Origin: Thermoprotei archaeon
Lineage (GTDB): Archaea; Thermoproteota; Thermoprotei; Gearchaeales; WAQG01
Assembly (NCBI GenBank): GCA_049976445.1
Contig: JBMFIF010000002.1
Coordinates: forward strand, 5,115-69,114
Length of the DNA: 64,000 bases
Direction of reading: 5' to 3'
In this document: positions 7,757-52,236 of the stretch, piece by piece
How positions within the stretch are numbered: position 1 is the stretch's first letter
Layout: every line of letters begins with the position of its first letter
Program-made: the position numbers and the translations under genes
Notes under the pieces: generated by a model
The model's database searches: none
Seen by the model: only the letters and a program-made list of their open reading frames with translations
What the model was told of the DNA's origin: nothing

Positions 7757-8431
7757 ATGATGAAAAGTATTAAAAGTCTGTTACATAGTAGAGAGCATGA
7801 TATTTTACGAATGGTAGTGGAACAAACTACGATTGTGCGTGATTCTATCTTTTTACTTGAGGATTTATTTCAGAAATTAAAGAATGGAGATTGGGGATAT
7901 GCGATAGAAAAAAGTTTAGAAATTGCTAGGGAAGAGCATAAGACTGATGTCAAGCGGGAAGAGATAGCTACTAAAATCTTTAAAGAAGCCTATATGCCAG
8001 ATTTCAGAGAAGCAATATTAATGCTAATTGAGAAAATAGATGAAGTAATAGATTCAATAAAGGATACTTCCAGAATTATAACGCAGAGAAAATTTGATGA
8101 AAAAATATTGAATGTTTTAGAGCCGGAGTTCACTGCTTATGTTAAATTATGCGTGAAAGCTGTTGAAACGATGTATTTTTCAATAAGCAAGCTTATTATT
8201 AACATTGATGAATCTATAAAACTTATAAATGAGATTAAATCGTTAGAGGTTCAAGTTGATGAGATGAAAATGTTATTGATAAAGCGCATATATAACATAG
8301 ATGAGAAAACAATCAGCATATTAACACTACTTCAAATTAAGGATGTTATTCTCTTTATGGATAATATTGTTGATAATGCTGAGGATGTCGGTGATGTTCT
8401 TCAACTCTTATACTTTACTATAAAAAGTTAA
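7757..8431 (+). CDS. DUF47 / PhoU-like phosphate transport regulator
   Basis: About 220-aa all-helical protein with the acidic repeats typical of the DUF47 family that normally accompanies PiT transporters. Its 3' end overlaps the convergent PiT gene by 14 nt. Confidence 0.55.
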   Translation: MMKSIKSLLHSREHDILRMVVEQTTIVRDSIFLLEDLFQKLKNGDWGYAIEKSLEIAREEHKTDVKREEIATKIFKEAYMPDFREAILMLIEKIDEVIDSIKDTSRIITQRKFDEKILNVLEPEFTAYVKLCVKAVETMYFSISKLIINIDESIKLINEIKSLEVQVDEMKMLLIKRIYNIDEKTISILTLLQIKDVILFMDNIVDNAEDVGDVLQLLYFTIKS

Positions 8432-9356
8432 GTATCAAATACACGAATAAGGAAATAGTTGTTCCAATAATTGGTGCTATGATCCAGTTCTTAAACATTT
8501 TCATAGAGCTGCCAACACGTAGGCTTCCCTTGGCAAGGTTTATACCGATTAGACTTCCTGTTATTGTTTGAGTTACTGATATTGGTATACCTATTGCTGT
8601 GAAAAATTGTATTATGATATTGGACGAAAGGAGAGCTGAGACAGTTGCTATACGACCTAATCTGCTGAGACGAAAACCAACTTCAATAAATATTCTTTTG
8701 CTCATTATAAGTAATCCTAGTGCACCAGCGATACCATTGATTAATAAAAGTTCAGTATAACCAATCTGTATTGAAGAAACCCTAATAATAGATATAATAA
8801 AACCAATCACATTCGCACCAACCAAATACGAATTATATAAACTCATAAACACGATTAGAAATTTTATCTTAAAACTTAAACCTACATCAGGCTTTAAAAA
8901 TGAATACCTATAAAAGATATTATAAAAAAACGCTGACAAAAATACTGATACTACAACACTAACTATCCATGATATAACAGTAAACAAAAAATAATTCCAA
9001 TTGATCATAAATATTCCTGCTGCTGCAAACCCCGCTATAGAAACTATCACCAATTGAGATACTGAAGTAGGAACACCAATTGCACTCAATAATATAAGAG
9101 TGACTATTGATGAAATCATTATGGATAAGAGCTCATCAGGTTTGCCATTAACTATCAACGTACTACCATAATTAATCATTAACGTTGCGTTTATTATAAC
9201 ACCAGCAAGAATCCCTAAAGCACAAAAAAACACAGCAGTCTTTCTCTTTAAAATGCCTGAACCCATAAGAACAGCCGGATTAATAGCAGAATTGTTTCCA
9301 CCACTTGTTAAGCTTAAAATAATACCCGCAGATAAAATTATAATCTCTTTAATAAT
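8418..9356 (-). CDS. PiT-family inorganic phosphate transporter (start extended to ATT at 9356)
   Basis: Polytopic membrane protein. The C-terminal PiT repeat is GIPISVTQTITGSLIGINLAKG. The N-terminal PiT signature region (SGGNNSAINPAVLMGSG, compare GANDVAN.I...VGSG) lies upstream of the first ATG (9266). Between that ATG and the in-frame TGA at 9363-9365 there is no ATG, GTG or TTG. GAGGTGA at 9363-9369 is followed after 6 nt by ATT. Confidence 0.6.
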   Translation of the reverse strand: MIKEIIILSAGIILSLTSGGNNSAINPAVLMGSGILKRKTAVFFCALGILAGVIINATLMINYGSTLIVNGKPDELLSIMISSIVTLILLSAIGVPTSVSQLVIVSIAGFAAAGIFMINWNYFLFTVISWIVSVVVSVFLSAFFYNIFYRYSFLKPDVGLSFKIKFLIVFMSLYNSYLVGANVIGFIISIIRVSSIQIGYTELLLINGIAGALGLLIMSKRIFIEVGFRLSRLGRIATVSALLSSNIIIQFFTAIGIPISVTQTITGSLIGINLAKGSLRVGSSMKMFKNWIIAPIIGTTISLFVYLILNFL

Positions 9357-9367
9357 TCCTATTCACC

Positions 9368-10051
9368 TCAAATAAAAGGAACTCCATACAATATTGACAT
9401 CAACGCCCTAACTATTATAATCCTCACACCAATCCATGCTGAAATTAACATAAATGTGGCAGCCAGTCTATTAGCACTTAAAATCTCACTTGCAGCATAA
9501 GATTGAAGAACAATACACCAAGTTATCGGTACAACATCAGCAATAAAAACATCTAATATATAATAAACACTATTAGACTGTGCCCATTTAATTAATGCCT
9601 CTTGAAATTGAATAGATAATGGAATACCAGCCTCATAATTGTACTGTATCCTTGGGAGAAAAAGTATTATAATTCCAGAAATTAACCGTCCAAGACCAAG
9701 TAATAACAGCAAATAAAACGAGAACAGCACGAATATCTTATAATACTCGTGCTTTACAGAAACAAGAACAAGAAGCATAGTCGAGAACAATATTAATCCA
9801 GACCCCTCAATAAGATATATAATAAATTCAGAAGAATAATACTGAAAAGTATTACCAAAAATCCCATTAATTTCTATGATCTTCGACGCAGAAGCATACG
9901 ACTTAAACATGGAAAAGAATAGAAATATCATGAAAGCCATCATCGGGCTTAGTAGATCCGGTGCTACTCGTTCTTCCTCCATTAATGCGCGTGGATTATA
10001 AACAATCCTCGCCAACCGCCTTATCATTCGTTTAACGATAATTAATGACAT
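9368..10051 (-). CDS. multi-pass membrane protein (Yip1-like topology)
   Basis: Basic N-terminus followed by about five hydrophobic segments. No catalytic motif recognised. Confidence 0.35.
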   Translation of the reverse strand: MSLIIVKRMIRRLARIVYNPRALMEEERVAPDLLSPMMAFMIFLFFSMFKSYASASKIIEINGIFGNTFQYYSSEFIIYLIEGSGLILFSTMLLVLVSVKHEYYKIFVLFSFYLLLLLGLGRLISGIIILFLPRIQYNYEAGIPLSIQFQEALIKWAQSNSVYYILDVFIADVVPITWCIVLQSYAASEILSANRLAATFMLISAWIGVRIIIVRALMSILYGVPFI

Positions 10052-10226: not shown

Positions 10227-12443
<2,217 letters not shown>

Positions 12444-19806: not shown

Positions 19807-20748
19807 ATGTATCAGGTGAAAATAATTAGTATCAATGAAAAGGATGAGATGGTCCAGAATTATCCGTCCAGAATACTTTATGAAGAAAAAGCTGATATAT
19901 ATGGTGTAGCTGTAAAACTTCTTACTGATTTAGATTGGGTTGACGAAAATTGGAGACGCAACTTCTATGCAATGTCAGATAGAATACGAAGTCATGCAAG
20001 ACTTTATGTCACGTTTAACAAGGAATATCCAGAGAATAGTGTATATTATGACCCTTTCACAAAGACAGCTTTCCTTTTTAACTTTGACTATTATGGTTGG
20101 ATTAAATCAATAGCATTAAGTTTAGCAGGTGATGTGTTGGAAGATGAACATGGAATATATTCAATACATGGCGCGTGTGTTGATGTAGATGGTTTAGGAG
20201 TAGTAATACTTGGGGCTTCTGGTGCAGGTAAGACAACACACACTTATGGTTTAATGAGAAGGGAAAAAGTTAGAGTAATAGCCGACGATTGGTTCTTCGT
20301 AAGAGGTGAAGAAAACCTTTTAGCATTCAGTAGTGAGAAGAATTTCTATATAAGAGCTGATATTGCCTCAATATGGCCTGAATATAAAATGCTAGTTGAA
20401 AAAGCTCAATTTGATAATAAAGGAAGAGCAATAGTGGATCTTCGATGGGTTGTCGGTAAGTATCGAATCCTACCTTTCACAACACTTAAGAAAACAATCA
20501 TCCTAATTAGAGATCAAAATGAACCAAGAATAATCATAAGGCCTTCATCAGATGATGCATTACAGCTATTAAAAGCTCAAGGATACGGTAATCCTCATTT
20601 CTTAGTTAACGATGAGAGAAAACAACGTATAAGAGAAGCATTTTTCAGAAAATTACTCAACATGACTGACGTATACATAGTCAATACAAGAAAAACTCCA
20701 GAGGAAACACAATCAGAGATAGCTAAAATTCTCAATTTAACCATCTAA
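19807..20748 (+). CDS. HprK C-terminal / PEPCK-like P-loop kinase-fold protein, function unknown
   Basis: IHGACVDVDGLGVVILGASGAGKTTHTYGLM ... VIADDWFFV resembles the HprK (LHG..V.V.G.GVLI.G.SG.GKS) and ATP-PEPCK (GLSGTGKTT ... IGDDEHGW) nucleotide-binding core. Confidence 0.45.
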   Translation: MYQVKIISINEKDEMVQNYPSRILYEEKADIYGVAVKLLTDLDWVDENWRRNFYAMSDRIRSHARLYVTFNKEYPENSVYYDPFTKTAFLFNFDYYGWIKSIALSLAGDVLEDEHGIYSIHGACVDVDGLGVVILGASGAGKTTHTYGLMRREKVRVIADDWFFVRGEENLLAFSSEKNFYIRADIASIWPEYKMLVEKAQFDNKGRAIVDLRWVVGKYRILPFTTLKKTIILIRDQNEPRIIIRPSSDDALQLLKAQGYGNPHFLVNDERKQRIREAFFRKLLNMTDVYIVNTRKTPEETQSEIAKILNLTI

Positions 20749-23220: not shown

Positions 23221-24408
23221 ATGGCACAAACATTAGTCATAAATGGTAATCATGCAGCAGCCTATGGTGCAAAAGTTTCAAAAGTTCAGTTCATATCAGC
23301 ATACCCTATAACACCACAAACTGTTATAGTAGAACGATTAGCGCAAATGGTAGAAAGTGGTGAATTAAACGCAAAATTTATCAGAGTTGAGTCAGAACAC
23401 AGCGCACTCGCAGCATGCATAGGTGCCGCCTCAGCAGGACTTAGAACATTCACAGCAACATCCTCACATGGATTAGCATACATGCATGAAATGATCATTT
23501 GGGCTGCTGGTGCACGATTACCAATAGTAATGCCAGTAGTAACACGAGCTTTCGCACCACCATGGAGTATCTGGGATGAACACACAGACATACTATTAGA
23601 AAGAGATACCGGATGGATAGTATTTATGGCTGAAAACAATCAAGAAGTCTTCGATACAATAATACAAGCTTACAAGATTGCAGAAAACGAAAACGTTCTC
23701 TTACCAGTTATGATAGGAATGGATGCATTCATACTCTCACACACAACAACACCAGTCGAGATACCAGACCAAGAACTTATAGATAACTTCCTCACGCAAG
23801 AGAGCAAAAGACCATTTATCCTAGACCCAAACAACCCGATAACACATGGAAGCCTTACATACCCAGAATGGTATATGGAATTCAGATACCTTCTTTATAA
23901 AGCAATGATAAATGCAAAATCAGTAATAAAAGATACTTCAAACCAATGGGCAAAACTTACCGGAAAATACCATGGAGATCTGATAGATTGTTACAAGTGC
24001 GCAGATGCCGATGTAAACATAATAACAATAGGAGCACCATCCGGTGATGCAAAAGAGGCTGCTGACATACTTAGATCAGAAGGATATAGAACAGGTGTGA
24101 TAAGATTACGCGTGATAAGACCATTTCCATCAGAAGAACTTAGGCAAGCAGCACATAATTCAAAAGTTCTCATAGTAGTAGATAGAAACTTATCACCAGG
24201 AATAGGCGGAATACTATTAAACGAAGTAAAAGCAGCACTACAAACGATGAAAAAACAACCCTTAGTACATGGGTTCATAGCAGGATTAGGAGGACGCGAT
24301 ATAACACTCCAAAACTTTATATCAATGTTCAAGAGAGGTTACGAAATACTAGAAAAAGGTGAAGAGCCAGGTACAGAATGGATCAACCTTAGAAAGGAGG
24401 TGCTCTAA
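23221..24408 (+). CDS. porA: pyruvate/2-oxoacid:ferredoxin oxidoreductase alpha subunit
   Basis: GNHAAAYGA ... ISAYPITPQT N-terminal signature. About 395 aa. GAGGAGG SD upstream. Confidence 0.85.
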   Translation: MAQTLVINGNHAAAYGAKVSKVQFISAYPITPQTVIVERLAQMVESGELNAKFIRVESEHSALAACIGAASAGLRTFTATSSHGLAYMHEMIIWAAGARLPIVMPVVTRAFAPPWSIWDEHTDILLERDTGWIVFMAENNQEVFDTIIQAYKIAENENVLLPVMIGMDAFILSHTTTPVEIPDQELIDNFLTQESKRPFILDPNNPITHGSLTYPEWYMEFRYLLYKAMINAKSVIKDTSNQWAKLTGKYHGDLIDCYKCADADVNIITIGAPSGDAKEAADILRSEGYRTGVIRLRVIRPFPSEELRQAAHNSKVLIVVDRNLSPGIGGILLNEVKAALQTMKKQPLVHGFIAGLGGRDITLQNFISMFKRGYEILEKGEEPGTEWINLRKEVL

Positions 24409-25308
24409 ATTACATCAATAAGAGAAATTCCTAGAGAAGAATACCTATTACCAGGCACAGCAGCATGCCCAGGATGTGGTTTTACAATAGGATTAAGAAT
24501 GGCACTAAAAGCATTAGGACCAAAAGTAATAATGGTTGTACCAGCAGGATGCACCTCAATAATACAAAGCCCATATCCATACGTTTCTATAGGAGTACCA
24601 CTATTAAACATCGCATTTGCTGCAGCAGCATCAACAGCATCAGGAATAGCAGCAGCACTAGAATACAAAGGGGATAAGGAAACCACAGTCCTAGTATGGG
24701 CAGGAGATGGAGGAACAGCAGACATAGGAATACAAGCGCTCAGCGGAGCAGCAGAAAGGGGCGATAATTTCATTTACATATGCTATGACAATGAAGCATA
24801 CATGAATACTGGAATACAAAGAAGCGGAGCAACACCATTCGGAGCATGGACAACAACCACATGGACTGGCAAAAAAGAATTCAAAAAAGACATCCCCATG
24901 ATTATGGCAGCACATAAAATACCTTACATTGCAACAGCATCAATAGCATACCCAATAGACTTCTACGATAAACTAAAGAAAGCCAAAACATACAAAGGAT
25001 TAAAATACTTACACATACACGCACCATGTCCACCAGGCTGGAAAATCCCAACAGACAAAACAGTAGAAATAGCAAAACTCGCAGTAGAAACAGGATTATG
25101 GGTACTCTACGAAATAGAAAACGGAGAGTTTAGACTCACAGGCCCTAGCAAAATACTCATAGACAAAAACAGAAGAAAATCAATAGAACAATACATCAAA
25201 ATACAAGGAAGATTCTCACACATGACAGACGAAGATATAAAAACACTCCAAGAATGGATAGATAAACAATGGGAACAATATACAGAAATGCTTAAACAAC
25301 GAAAATAA
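24409..25308 (+). CDS. porB: pyruvate/2-oxoacid:ferredoxin oxidoreductase beta subunit (TPP-binding); start placed at ATT 24409
   Basis: TPP motif GDGGTADIG. The conserved N-terminal LPGTAACPGCG (Fe-S ligand cysteines) lies between the porA TAA (24406-24408) and the first ATG (24499). That stretch has no ATG, GTG or TTG. GGAGGTG at 24396-24402 is followed after 6 nt by ATT. Confidence 0.8.
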   Translation: MTSIREIPREEYLLPGTAACPGCGFTIGLRMALKALGPKVIMVVPAGCTSIIQSPYPYVSIGVPLLNIAFAAAASTASGIAAALEYKGDKETTVLVWAGDGGTADIGIQALSGAAERGDNFIYICYDNEAYMNTGIQRSGATPFGAWTTTTWTGKKEFKKDIPMIMAAHKIPYIATASIAYPIDFYDKLKKAKTYKGLKYLHIHAPCPPGWKIPTDKTVEIAKLAVETGLWVLYEIENGEFRLTGPSKILIDKNRRKSIEQYIKIQGRFSHMTDEDIKTLQEWIDKQWEQYTEMLKQRK

Positions 25309-25571: not shown

Positions 25572-25952
25572 TTACATACTAAGACTTAATAATGTTAATT
25601 CATCAATTGTTTGATTAAACAATGCCTCATAAAGACCAGCGACCCTCTCTAAAATAATAATACCTTTAGTTAACACGTTATACCTAAACTTTACTTGCAA
25701 CTCATCTATTGGAACAACATCAAAAGGAATTCTTAAAAACTCTTCTAATCTAGCAGAAAGTAATGCATAATATTTAAACTCCTTATTCATAGAATAAATG
25801 GCAATATCAACATCCCTAAAACTTTTTAACTCCACAAAACTACCAAATATGATTGCTAGAAGCACATCTTTTTCACTCTCAAAAAACTCTCTAATGGAAT
25901 TCATGACAGTTTTCTTATCAATCCTATAATACTTAAATCTTGAAAGCATCAC
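25572..25952 (-). CDS. minimal nucleotidyltransferase (MNT) antitoxin-type protein
   Basis: GSFVELKSFRDVDIAIY is the GS-x(n)-DxD NTase motif. Overlaps the upstream HEPN gene by 20 nt. Confidence 0.8.
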   Translation of the reverse strand: MMLSRFKYYRIDKKTVMNSIREFFESEKDVLLAIIFGSFVELKSFRDVDIAIYSMNKEFKYYALLSARLEEFLRIPFDVVPIDELQVKFRYNVLTKGIIILERVAGLYEALFNQTIDELTLLSLSM

Positions 25953-26355
25953 TAATCCTCCTAATAAAATTCATAACATTAACAAAATCACTTCTAATAT
26001 TCTCATATATCTTCTCGTCAATAATAATCCAATATCTATGAACAAGTAAATTTCGCAACTTAAACATGCTCACAAAATCCTTATACTCTTCATCAATCAA
26101 AAGACCCTTATCTCTTAAAATATTTAAGGCATGAATTGAAGATTCAGGTTCAACATTATAAAATCTCCTAACAATGTGAAGAGCTAAAGCACTCAAAGCT
26201 TCAGCAATCACAATGATATGATATCTAACTGCATACCTCTCAGTAAGACTTATTTCTTCAAACGACTTACTAACATAATCACTAATAATATTTATAGATT
26301 CCATAATATCTTTAATAAGTTTCTTAATAAAATCTCTATTAACATCCACTCTCAA
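25933..26355 (-). CDS. HEPN (DUF86) toxin-type protein
   Basis: RNLLVHRYW is the R-x4-H HEPN motif. About 140 aa. Paired with the MNT gene. Confidence 0.8.
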   Translation of the reverse strand: MRVDVNRDFIKKLIKDIMESINIISDYVSKSFEEISLTERYAVRYHIIVIAEALSALALHIVRRFYNVEPESSIHALNILRDKGLLIDEEYKDFVSMFKLRNLLVHRYWIIIDEKIYENIRSDFVNVMNFIRRISDAFKI

Positions 26356-49038: not shown

Positions 49039-50127
49039 TTAAGTATCTTTCTCCATGCTTTTTATTTTCTTTAATATGTAACGGTCTATTATTGCTGTTA
49101 GACCGTATTTACTGAATGCTTCAAGTTCAGCTTTTAGGCCTATCTTCTTAAATGCTCTAAGTTGTTCTGCCCATATGCCATCGCTATATCTAGGGTCTCT
49201 TTCTAATGTTATTAAACGTTGTACATCGATAGTGTTTAGTTTAAGTGCAGGTAAGTCGTATTTTTTAATATCTGTTGCCCATATGCCCACCCACTTGGCA
49301 TTAGGTGTTGCTAGAAATGGTATATGAGCTGCTTGTGCTGATCCTGATGTGATGACCCTTGCGATGTGCATTCCCCATGGATCCGCATCGGTAAGAATGT
49401 ATACCGGTAGTCCTAATTCTTCATGTAATCTTCTTATGACAATTCTGGTAAATCTTGGTGCTTGGCCTCCGGTATCTATAAGGATTGCATTTAGTTTGTT
49501 GTAAAGCCCTTCTTCTATGAATCTTCTAAACATTGCTCCTTTTTCTACAGCTATAACCATTCTTGCGTTTGTTTCGATGAATTTTGCTGTTGCAATAGAA
49601 AGTCCTATGTTTTTGCCATCAGGATCTGACATTAAGTTTACCTTTAATCCTGCGTGGCTTTCAGGTGTTGTATATTCAATGGTCAAATCACCAAATATCG
49701 AGCTTTTCTCTTCAGGTAGAATGTTAAATGTTTCGCGTGGTACACCTAGTATGCTTTCTAGCTCAACAACTACATTATCTGATTCATCTTGTTCATCAAA
49801 CTTGATTGCTTCGTCGTTGAATGAATGATAGTATAGATCTCTGAGACTGCACGATTTGCCCTTATCTACTAGATTTGTTTTTGCAAAAGCTGCAACCCAC
49901 ATTAATCTTGCGAATGCCTTTGATTGTTTTATGTTTGAACTGCTCCTTATTGACATTTTTTCTCCTAATTTTACTACTCCTTTTTCTGGGTCATATATGA
50001 TGTTTGAAACGCTTCTTACAGGCAGTTTTATTTTTGGATATAAACCAGATTCTAACTGTTTATATACTTCAAGACCAAGAAGTCTTAATCGTTCCGATAT
50101 ATTCATTCTATCGTTATTCATACTCAT
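49039..50127 (-). CDS. top6A: DNA topoisomerase VI subunit A (Spo11 family)
   Basis: 5Y-CAP region with SLRDLYYHS. Toprim motifs VEKGAMF (Glu) and ILTDADPWG (DxD). Confidence 0.9.
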   Translation of the reverse strand: MSMNNDRMNISERLRLLGLEVYKQLESGLYPKIKLPVRSVSNIIYDPEKGVVKLGEKMSIRSSSNIKQSKAFARLMWVAAFAKTNLVDKGKSCSLRDLYYHSFNDEAIKFDEQDESDNVVVELESILGVPRETFNILPEEKSSIFGDLTIEYTTPESHAGLKVNLMSDPDGKNIGLSIATAKFIETNARMVIAVEKGAMFRRFIEEGLYNKLNAILIDTGGQAPRFTRIVIRRLHEELGLPVYILTDADPWGMHIARVITSGSAQAAHIPFLATPNAKWVGIWATDIKKYDLPALKLNTIDVQRLITLERDPRYSDGIWAEQLRAFKKIGLKAELEAFSKYGLTAIIDRYILKKIKSMEKDT

Positions 50128-51683
50128 TGTTTTGCTACCTCCTCTATTTGAGTTTCAGTAAGTACTGGTTCAGGTAATCCTGTAAGTTCAGAAGAATACT
50201 TGGCAATGAGCTTTAAATATTTACTTAAAACATTGAGTCGTGTACGATTTATCTCTTCAAAGCGTTTCTTATTTAGATATGCAGATAAGTGTCTTGCATT
50301 TTCTCTTAATCCAAGCTCTATTTCTCTTGCTACCTCAGGCTGTTCTGCGATGTACTCTTTTCCTACAGTCTTATAAGGTATTTTTGTGGAACAAATGTGG
50401 ACAAAGAATGCGATGGGTTCATTGTAGATTTTAATCTTGTAATTGTTCCAGTCAATCCTTTTAATAACTTTCATTGAGACATCACTGTATACATCATAAA
50501 GGAGTGGAATTTTATTAGCAAACCTGTAAAGATTTACCTCACCTTCGCCTGCAGGTTGTATTTTTCCTCCATAAGCAATTGCAGTTTCAACAATAAATGG
50601 ATGACCTTCATAAGATGATGGAGGTCTTTGAACAGCATGCACAAATTCTGCACCTGTAGATTCTTTAATGCCAATTTTTAATAGGTCTTCACCTATGGGT
50701 GAAAGACCAGATGCATCAGGAGGTAAAAATTCGCTAAAGTTTTTCATTGCCGCAGAAAGCTTTACTATCATATCCTGGTTTAATTTTTCAACACGCAGAT
50801 CTGGCTGAAAACCTACATACTCTAGGAATTTTTCTGCTTTCTTAGGACCCACACGCTGAAAATTCTCTATTAAAAATTCTTTTAGAGTCATACCTTTAGA
50901 TTTCGTTATCAACCTTTTTAATAACTCTACATCTACACCATGCGGATGTGGTAAGATTTCATGTGGTTTCTTTGGCATATTTTCTGTCTTTCTTTCAAAC
51001 GTATACATCACACCATCTGGATCAATAAACCTGATCGATGCGTAAGGTAGTATCATAGATGTTTGCCACAAATACTCTATTATACGATTTTTTGCTTTAT
51101 AATAATCTCCTATAAAAGAAAAGCTTATCATTGTTCCATGCCAATCATCCGTGTTCTCAAGTATTTTTCTTTTAAGTTGTAAAGGTTTATTTCTGGTTAT
51201 GTCTATCATTAATTCATAGTAATAAATAAACCGAGATCCTAATGTTGCGGATGCGACTTCAACTGTAGTATTAGTGGTAATTTGCCCATAAAGTATAGCC
51301 ATTTTGCCGCCTAGGCCAAATAATCCTCTGGCTTGTCTTAACCTGTATTTAGAACCATAAAAAACTTGCCCAAACGCTGAAGGAATATGCTCTTGAGGAA
51401 CTCCACCACCATTATCTATAACACGTATTTTAAGTAATTCTCCATTCTCCGTCATTTTGCTAGTAAGCACTCCGTTAGTGTCATCAACTTTTATCATGCG
51501 TATTTCAACATCAGGAGGTATTCCATTATTCTCACATGAATCTAAAGAATTCTCGACAAGTTCCCTGAGTATTGTATATGTAGCTCTGGCAGAATTGTCA
51601 AAGCCCGCTATTTCCTTGTTTCTATAGAAAAAATCAGCAGGAGAAATGGATTCATACTTTTCTTCTATCAAATCAAGCTTCAC
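50124..51683 (-). CDS. top6B: DNA topoisomerase VI subunit B (GHKL ATPase)
   Basis: Bergerat-fold N box LRELVENSLDS and G1 box VIDNGGGV. 4-nt overlap with top6A. Confidence 0.9.
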   Translation of the reverse strand: MKLDLIEEKYESISPADFFYRNKEIAGFDNSARATYTILRELVENSLDSCENNGIPPDVEIRMIKVDDTNGVLTSKMTENGELLKIRVIDNGGGVPQEHIPSAFGQVFYGSKYRLRQARGLFGLGGKMAILYGQITTNTTVEVASATLGSRFIYYYELMIDITRNKPLQLKRKILENTDDWHGTMISFSFIGDYYKAKNRIIEYLWQTSMILPYASIRFIDPDGVMYTFERKTENMPKKPHEILPHPHGVDVELLKRLITKSKGMTLKEFLIENFQRVGPKKAEKFLEYVGFQPDLRVEKLNQDMIVKLSAAMKNFSEFLPPDASGLSPIGEDLLKIGIKESTGAEFVHAVQRPPSSYEGHPFIVETAIAYGGKIQPAGEGEVNLYRFANKIPLLYDVYSDVSMKVIKRIDWNNYKIKIYNEPIAFFVHICSTKIPYKTVGKEYIAEQPEVAREIELGLRENARHLSAYLNKKRFEEINRTRLNVLSKYLKLIAKYSSELTGLPEPVLTETQIEEVAKQ

Positions 51684-52236
51684 CTCCTAAACTTTTTAAT
51701 GATCTTATTTTCTGAGCTGACTTAAAGCGTTCTAAGAATCTATAAACTGCAGTATGCGGCGAACCATCAATCAACATTTCTATAGCCCTTTTAGCTGCTT
51801 GAAGTTGCTCAAAATTACCTATTATGACTACCTCATTATTGCTAATACTAATACTTGCACCAGTAAACTCGATTATTGTGGATTTAGTCTTACCACCAGC
51901 TCCGATAATTCTCCCCTTCACTCTAGTAATGTCATTAGACGATGATAAATAGTCCTTAAGATTTATTATTTCCATAAAAGTATCAGGGTCTCGTAACCTT
52001 AATGTATCGTTTGGATCAAATCCGTATCCGTAGGCTTGGATCATTTCTCTTGCTCTTATTATATCGCTCTGTCTAGAATCTTTATCAACATCAATAGTAA
52101 TTTCACCAGTCTCTCTCTTTACAGTAATTTTGGTTCCAGTAACTTTTTCTACCTCACGAATAAACCAAGAATCTTTACCTAGTATAGATTTAAGACGAGT
52201 CTCAGGAATACTAATAACAATCCTTGAAGGATACAT
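51673..52236 (-). CDS. double KH-domain RNA-binding protein (Dim2/Pno1-like)
   Basis: Two KH units (ILGKDSW..., IIGAGGKTKSTI with GxxG). Start chosen at MYPSRIV (52236) within the longer ORF. Overlaps the top6B start by 11 nt. Confidence 0.6.
   Translation of the reverse strand: MYPSRIVISIPETRLKSILGKDSWFIREVEKVTGTKITVKRETGEITIDVDKDSRQSDIIRAREMIQAYGYGFDPNDTLRLRDPDTFMEIINLKDYLSSSNDITRVKGRIIGAGGKTKSTIIEFTGASISISNNEVVIIGNFEQLQAAKRAIEMLIDGSPHTAVYRFLERFKSAQKIRSLKSLGGEA

Follow-up and report, generated by a model that had tools for sequence, protein, structure and literature searches.

A gene for a PiT-like transporter of an uncultured Thermoprotei archaeon from hot springs appears to be translated from an ATT codon. 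The gene is located on the minus strand of the window, i.e. the whole stretch of 64,000 nucleotides (nt) analysed here (GenBank assembly GCA_049976445.1, contig JBMFIF010000002.1, positions 5,115 to 69,114 of the forward strand), and the first part of its reading frame contains none of the canonical starts ATG, GTG and TTG. Conservation among relatives and the distance to a Shine-Dalgarno (SD) motif point to initiation at ATT 9356 or the adjacent ATT 9353, a reading to which we assign a probability of roughly 0.6; most likely the start is ATT 9356-9354, with ATT 9353-9351 as a possible alternative. The properties of a near-cognate start were found together at this site: a stop-bounded segment before the first ATG that is supported by homology and kept in relatives, an SD motif at a functional and, for ATT 9356, normal spacing, and an ATT ATT pair conserved in relatives that lack a canonical start as well. 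An ATT start is also predicted for a second gene in the window, porB.

Direct reading of the minus strand placed an in-frame TGA (9365-9363) 32 sense codons before the first ATG (9266), and ATG, GTG and TTG are absent from all of these 32 codons, which begin at 9362. The motif GAGGTGA (9369-9363) overlaps the stop codon (TGA 9370-9368) of a co-directional open reading frame (ORF) upstream, while its last three bases are the TGA of the PiT frame. From GAGGTGA to the first ATT (9356) there are exactly 6 nt, ATAGGA. A first-pass annotation of the window had described this junction, with TGA-bounded codons devoid of canonical starts and with GAGGTGA followed after 6 nt by ATT ATT; its coordinates and its description proved correct. 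Calculated from the codon usage of the PiT-like ORF itself, a run of 32 codons without canonical start has a chance of P ~0.095. The absence by itself is not unusual; the weight of the argument is carried by homology and conservation.

By alignment with TmPiT (6L85), the Thermotoga protein of solved structure, the 30 codons that precede Met 9266 correspond to the first transmembrane segment (TM1) and the first signature, G-x-N-D; the segment also matches a PiT-type model of NCBIfam, from residue 14 onwards. It is present in seven of seven orthologues, and in a search of 1.84 billion representatives of 50 % clusters the homologues started at query positions 4-15. For comparisons of the DNA, WIN denotes the window's own locus, and L-numbers denote loci of relatives or of other assemblies. 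L001 (GCA_038881895.1; 84 % amino acid (aa) identity) has the same in-frame TGA and is also without canonical start before TM1. Between WIN and L001, the ratio of non-synonymous to synonymous substitution rates (dN/dS) is 0.14 in the 30 upstream codons (10 synonymous and 6 non-synonymous changes; P = 0.0015 against neutrality) and 0.16 in the remainder of the gene. Three changes separate WIN from L104 (GCA_964615525.1; 91 % nt identity to the window) in the 30-codon segment, all of them synonymous. Between WIN and L001, neither of which has a canonical start, selection on the segment equals that on the remaining codons; this and the conservation of the segment indicate that the upstream codons are still translated. 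An error of sequencing or assembly was rejected. The PiT junction is identical in three independent assemblies from different samples (L015, ERZ1669249; L022, JGI 3300039096; L023, GCA_023270135.1), whose overall identity to the window is 99.2-99.97 %, and the porB junction in L020 and L021, again from other samples; the independent assemblies show the same bases and no canonical start.

A start at the first ATG (9266) would yield a product of 282 aa without TM1 and first signature, with the upstream 30 codons as an untranslated relic. This ATG is the sole canonical start, and JGI/IMG annotates it as the start of the gene (P0012), but the purifying selection on the upstream codons in lineages without canonical start speaks against a relic, and no SD motif was read before the ATG. 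The alignment with TmPiT bears out the first-pass claim that such a start would cost the protein TM1 and the signature; in TmPiT, TM1 holds substrate- and Na-binding residues (PMC7413737). In every homologue the protein begins before the first signature, and the orthologues likewise include the upstream segment rather than beginning at Met 9266. We regard initiation at this ATG as quite unlikely.

The junctions of all loci, anchored on the GGNNSA motif, are given in Table 1. ATT ATT is kept in the four closest lineages (WIN, L104, L001 and L002), and the 6 nt before the pair vary: ATAGGA, ACGGGA, GCAGAA and, with a difference of 1 nt in length in L002, (G)TAAAG. Variation of this kind, with a 1-nt indel, would be expected in a spacer that is not translated; in the coding sequence of a selected gene it would not. 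Counted from the GGTG core of the SD motif, the distance is 7 nt to ATT 9356, 10 nt to ATT 9353 and 1 nt to ATA 9362.

Initiation further in, at ATT 9344, ATA 9341 or ATT 9338, would shorten the N-terminus slightly and keep most of TM1. L002 has an ATG where the window has ATT 9344, and the N-termini of the homologues at query positions 4-15 would fit as well. These three codons, however, lie 19-25 nt from the GGTG core, beyond the range of 5-9 nt in the window, and the residues I-I-K-E upstream of them are conserved, so that a start in this region seems rather improbable. The GenBank annotation uses ATA 9362-9360 right after the TGA (314 aa, MGIIKE...), as do the NCBI products MGB9728386.1, MGC9164241.1 and MGC8948198.1, and in the codon alignment this ATA occupies the place of the ATG in L004, L005 and L006. 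The first-pass statement that the signature can only be translated from ATT was therefore too strong, since ATA 9362 and ATA 9341 are near-cognate codons too, while its preference for ATT was upheld. ATA 9362 stands just 1 nt behind GGTG, in contrast to the 5-9 nt of the canonical SD-led starts in the window, and it is not conserved, the corresponding codon being ACG in L104 (91 % identical) and GCA in L001. In another metagenome-assembled genome (MAG) of the same population, NCBI itself picked ATT at Ile15 (300 aa); the annotated start differs among near-identical MAGs. On spacing and lack of conservation, ATA 9362 was rejected as a very unlikely start, and the choice made in GenBank is probably wrong.

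SD motifs are in use in this genome. In the window, 10 canonical starts at the 5' ends of ORFs have GGTG at a distance of 5-9 nt upstream, compared to 0-3 for permuted motifs, and in six of the 10 the spacing is 6 nt. No more than four ORFs carry the full hexamer GAGGTG at the 5' end, two of them with TTG starts and the other two being the ATT cases PiT and porB. Apart from these two, no further near-cognate start with coding evidence was seen in the window when ORFs with at least 12 codons between stop and canonical start were inspected by eye; the remaining stop-to-start gaps were judged, also by eye, to be overlaps or AT-rich intergenic DNA. In a 313-aa ORF on the plus strand, AGGTGA, 5 nt and an in-frame ATT (19825) follow six codons after ATG 19807, which makes the true start of this ORF uncertain; with the ATG at 19807, the ATT was rejected as a further near-cognate case. 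The ORF 50124-51683 on the minus strand (start region 51669-51690) has a nominal GTG start inside GGAGGTG, and its likelier start is TTG 51671, 9 nt past GGAGGTG and just after the upstream stop. The same ambiguity of a GTG inside the SD motif occurs in the PiT relatives.

As judged by sequence comparison, porB is the cleaner of the two ATT cases. The porA stop TAA (24406-24408) is part of the spacer CTCTAA, and the porB ATT follows without a gap (0 nt). The GGTG core is 6 nt from this ATT and 7 nt from that of PiT; the first-pass annotation had rightly referred from one site to the other, but the geometry that it called the same is near and not exact. The 30 codons from the porB ATT encode the conserved N-terminus PGTAACPGCG. 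Four relatives, among them L019, which belongs to the genome of L001, have ATG at the exact codon of ATT 24409, and two independent JGI assemblies (L020, L021) confirmed the ATT. The predicted tryptic peptide EEYLLPGTAACPGCGFTIGLR lies wholly upstream of the first ATG of porB.

In the proposed mechanism, the PiT-like gene is intact and would be translated from the near-cognate AUU as second cistron of a two-gene transcript, co-transcription with the upstream ORF being presumed. Pairing between GAGGUGA and the 16S rRNA 3' end would retain a 30S subunit, or else a ribosome fresh from termination at the TGA 11 nt upstream. The pairing would put AUU into the P site, where the initiator Met-tRNA would pair with a third-position mismatch, and the predicted product has 312 aa and the N-terminus M-I-K-E-I-I-I-L. 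Coupling by termination-reinitiation may contribute. From the upstream stop to ATT there are 11 nt at PiT and 0 nt at porB, where TAA stands directly before ATT; in H. volcanii, termination-reinitiation works within a stop-start distance of about 10-14 nt (PMC10666635). The distances of PiT and porB, within or near this range, would suit coupling. The two genes share with the archaeal termination-reinitiation systems (Huber et al. 2019, PMC6728339; PMC10666635) the position as distal gene of a co-directional pair and the SD motif within the end of the upstream gene. The described cases, however, have AUG, GUG or UUG and mostly overlaps of 4 nt or 1 nt, and reinitiation at AUU in archaea was not described in the literature searched.

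The junctions of the relatives suggest how the start was replaced. The GTG of TGAGGTG is in frame in L002-L014 and used there by the gene callers; L004-6 additionally have an ATG two codons later. Synonymous divergence (dS) makes WIN and L001 sisters (dS ~0.5) and places L002 outside. The common ancestor of WIN, L104 and L001 would have gained 1 nt after the GTG, by which the GTG came out of frame and the in-frame TGA was created. What used to be stop and start, a sequence that matches the SD perfectly, would now position the ribosome. As the whole gene has been under selection since the split of WIN and L001, initiation would already have been at ATT or able to move there. AUU starts are already known in bacteria, classically in infC, the gene of initiation factor 3 (IF3). 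These genes, of which infC is described in PMC4705826, resemble the PiT case in that an AUU behind an SD motif would start a conserved protein and is kept among relatives. The archaeon differs by having the archaeal initiation factors aIF1 and aIF2 in place of IF3, the products of the window genes have no link to initiation fidelity and show no sign of autoregulation, and the AUU would here have replaced a canonical start in the course of evolution, following a 1-nt insertion at PiT and a point change at porB, instead of being an old device of regulation.

Several points weigh against initiation at ATT. The conservation boundary at ATT ATT rests on just 6 nt (Fisher P = 0.09), and ATA 9362, ATT 9344, ATA 9341 and ATT 9338 offer further near-cognate codons in frame. 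The anti-SD sequence was assumed from other archaea, the 3' end of the organism's 16S rRNA being outside the window; Rfam yielded no match in the window, so that no rRNA or tRNA was available there to give the anti-SD sequence or the initiator tRNA. In vitro, aIF1 of Sulfolobus solfataricus discriminates against AUU (Hasenoehrl 2009, as cited in PMC4705826); AUU is therefore expected to initiate poorly in an archaeon related to this group. The reviews consulted name only AUG, GUG and UUG as archaeal starts (PMC7531240), and our literature search revealed no AUU start described in an archaeon. Among the putative alternative initiation sites in a profiling study of H. volcanii, ~30 % were near-cognate, which was not followed up there (PMC7261190).

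An early pseudogene with a destroyed start was also considered, as the loss of the canonical start and an in-frame 5' stop are typical first lesions of pseudogenes. It was rejected as highly improbable: 312-314 codons are intact in WIN, L104 and L001 across a dS of ~0.5, with dN/dS of 0.14-0.16, the start-less state is shared by these three diverged lineages, and porB, part of a core enzyme, has the same kind of start. Recoding, either by a +1 frameshift from the out-of-frame GTG 9366 or by read-through of TGA 9365 from the in-frame TTG 9371, is hardly credible: the two codons are present, WIN, L104 and L001 all keep them, and GTG is in frame in more distant relatives, but the C-terminus and stop of the upstream gene and the SD motif account for the conservation of TTG AGG TGA, neither codon is preceded by an SD motif, and the GTG frame (GTG AAT AGG AAT TAT TAA) presents no slippery site and no homopolymer run for transcriptional slippage. 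Reading of 9375-9345 revealed neither a slippery heptamer nor a long homopolymer, nor did Rfam report any element in the window. Fusion of the upstream ORF with the PiT frame would take two shifts, and on this reading it was rejected along with the frameshift and the read-through, none of which left a signal in the sequence.

The protein encoded by the gene scores 87.2 bits (E = 1.3e-24) with the Pfam profile PHO4 (PF01384), whose gathering cut-off is 33.7, and a profile of its clade matched TmPiT 6L85 (E = 2.4e-11). The best NCBIfam match was the model of the CysP sulfate permease with 49.7 bits against a cut-off of 400. By alignment, all three acidic residues of TmPiT that bind Na and inorganic phosphate (Pi) are replaced in the window protein: D22 and D258 as listed in Table 1, and D327 (E575 of human PiT2, hPiT2; Na(fore) site) by a hydrophobic residue in GRIATVSALLS (~8640-8670), the last according to the HMMER alignment only. 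In TmPiT, Pi as well as Na is bound by D22 and D258, and in human PiT2 the exchanges D28N and D506N, at the corresponding signature residues, abolish Pi uptake (PMC7413737). N24 and V185 are invariant in seven of seven orthologues, and the signature Asp residues of the PiT family in TM1 and TM6 are not present. The P-x-S-x-T/S motifs of the two re-entrant hairpins, located at their tips, are kept as VPTSVSQ and IPISVTQT, aligned with S105-T107 and S345-T347 of TmPiT. At the first site, 56 of the 119 nearest short PiT-like representatives have D and 46 have N; at the second, 58 have N, 28 T, 14 D and 4 V. In the representative search, the clade of the window protein stands isolated: after a single 50 % cluster at E = 1e-168, the next match is at 8e-43. 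Thus the exchange of the signature Asp for Asn that the first-pass annotation had pointed out is real and even goes further, with three acidic residues lost, but rather than being peculiar to this gene it characterises the whole clade and a large subfamily of short PiT-like proteins. From the alignments, the loss of acidic residues appears as a trait of the short (~300-320 aa) PiT-like subfamily in archaea and bacteria.

With the PiT symporters (TmPiT 6L85, human SLC20/PiT2, E. coli PitA) the window protein has the PHO4 match, the two-repeat architecture, the hairpin motifs and a DUF47 neighbour in common; it differs by the lack of equivalents of D22, D258 and D327, by a second signature shorter by 4 residues and by the convergent orientation of the DUF47 gene. 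The short archaeal and bacterial PiT-like proteins resemble it in length and motif pattern, with the clade of the window set apart. The name inorganic phosphate transporter is a putative label, for which the adjacent PhoU_div/DUF47 gene provides support from context. We know of no short PiT-like protein of this group with an experimentally established function, and the missing acidic residues put the substrate and the coupling ion of the subfamily in question.

Table 1. Features of the PiT and porB start regions, codons and junctions (anchored on GGNNSA) at the PiT start, and starts in public records. Positions refer to the window.
Feature	Positions	Strand	Remarks
Upstream co-directional ORF	10051-9368	-	227-aa multi-pass membrane protein, stop TGA 9370-9368
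SD-like motif GAGGTGA	9363..9369	-	GTG within it (9366-9364) out of frame here, in frame in L002-L014
ATA, GenBank start of 314-aa product	9360..9362	-	1 nt after GGTG; not conserved
ATT ATT pair	9351..9356	-	ATT 9356-9354 proposed start; ATT 9353-9351 alternative
30 codons before first ATG	9267..9356	-	encode TM1 and first signature; purifying selection
First canonical start ATG	9264..9266	-	Met33 in 314-aa numbering; JGI start, 282-aa product
PiT-like (PHO4, PF01384) coding sequence as proposed	8418..9356	-	312 codons and stop
First signature G-G-N-N-S	9288..9302	-	N24 (9293-9291) replaces TmPiT D22
Second signature G-A-N-V-I	8805..8819	-	V185 (8810-8808) replaces TmPiT D258; 4 residues shorter than in TmPiT
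PhoU_div (DUF47, TIGR00153-like) gene	7757..8431	+	convergent with PiT-like gene
porB start region	24396..24411	+	GGAGGTG 24396-24402, CTCTAA, ATT 24409-24411
Codons after TGA to first ATG			ATA(9362) GGA ATT(9356) ATT(9353) AAA GAG ATT ATA ATT TTA TCT GCG GGT ATT ATT TTA AGC TTA ACA AGT GGT GGA AAC AAT TCT GCT ATT AAT CCG GCT GTT CTT ATG(9266)
Junction, WIN			TGAGGTGA ATA GGA ATT ATT AAA GAG
Junction, L104			TGAGGTGA ACG GGA ATT ATT AAG GAG
Junction, L001			TGAGGTGA GCA GAA ATT ATT AGA GAG
Junction, L002			TGAGGTG GTA AAG ATT ATT AAA GAG
Junction, L003			TGAGGTG GTA TTA ATC AGC ATT GAA GAA
Junction, L004-6			TGAGGTG GTA ATG ATT AAT ATT/GTT GAG GAA
Junction, L007-14			TGAGGTG ATA AAA ATT AAT GTT GAG GAA
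PiT record, 314 aa			start ATA 9362
PiT record, 300 aa			start ATT at Ile15
PiT record, 297 aa			start TTG in L104
PiT record, 282 aa			start ATG 9266
porB record, 299 aa			start ATT 24409
porB record, 293 aa			start ATT at codon 7
porB record, 269 aa			start first ATG (24499)

The 227-aa ORF is directly 5' of the PiT-like gene in every relative whose flanking sequence could be examined, and it had no match to a Pfam or NCBIfam family. This membrane protein, encoded by an ORF (9368-10051, minus strand) whose stop overlaps the ribosome-binding site of the PiT-like gene, may be an unrecognised partner subunit. At the other end, the 3' ends of the PiT-like gene and the PhoU_div/DUF47 gene overlap by 14 nt (8418-8431), and by 4-24 nt in relatives. 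Usually the DUF47 gene is located upstream of the PiT gene on the same strand. Downstream of porB (24396-25308, plus strand), two small overlapping ORFs are located on the minus strand (25572-26355). In the identical JGI locus L020 they have Pfam matches to a Polbeta nucleotidyltransferase and a HepT-like protein, and they are likely an MNT/HepT toxin-antitoxin pair.

A non-canonical start is already implied in the GenBank and JGI records, but the codon chosen varies by record (Table 1). Gene callers limited to ATG, GTG and TTG cut a functional helix from the PiT-like protein and the Cys-rich N-terminus from porB. The organism belongs to a deep, poorly sampled lineage of the Thermoproteota. 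Among 185,579 GTDB species representatives, the PiT profile had no match, and the CDC48/VAT ATPase of the window (10233-12443, plus strand; loci L024-L103) had best matches of 65-70 % identity; together the two scans show that the lineage has no close representative genome in this collection. A scan of JGI metagenomes yielded just three loci.

The interest of the finding lies in two such starts within one 64-kb window of this lineage. The proposed AUU starts concern about two of roughly 60 genes in the window, one of them for a part of a core enzyme. We regard as doubtful the wider idea of a lineage with relaxed start stringency, in which an AUU behind a strong GAGGUG or beside an upstream stop is a regular start. 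If true, this would be the first lineage-level use of AUU described in archaea, and it would imply an altered check by aIF1 or the initiator tRNA, or a reinitiation that bypasses aIF1. The PiT junction suggests that a frameshift in the start region can be survived when the old stop-plus-start sequence becomes a ribosome-binding site. The two AUU starts, that of PiT kept since the split from L001, would offer concrete templates on which near-cognate initiation and reinitiation can be tested in archaea.

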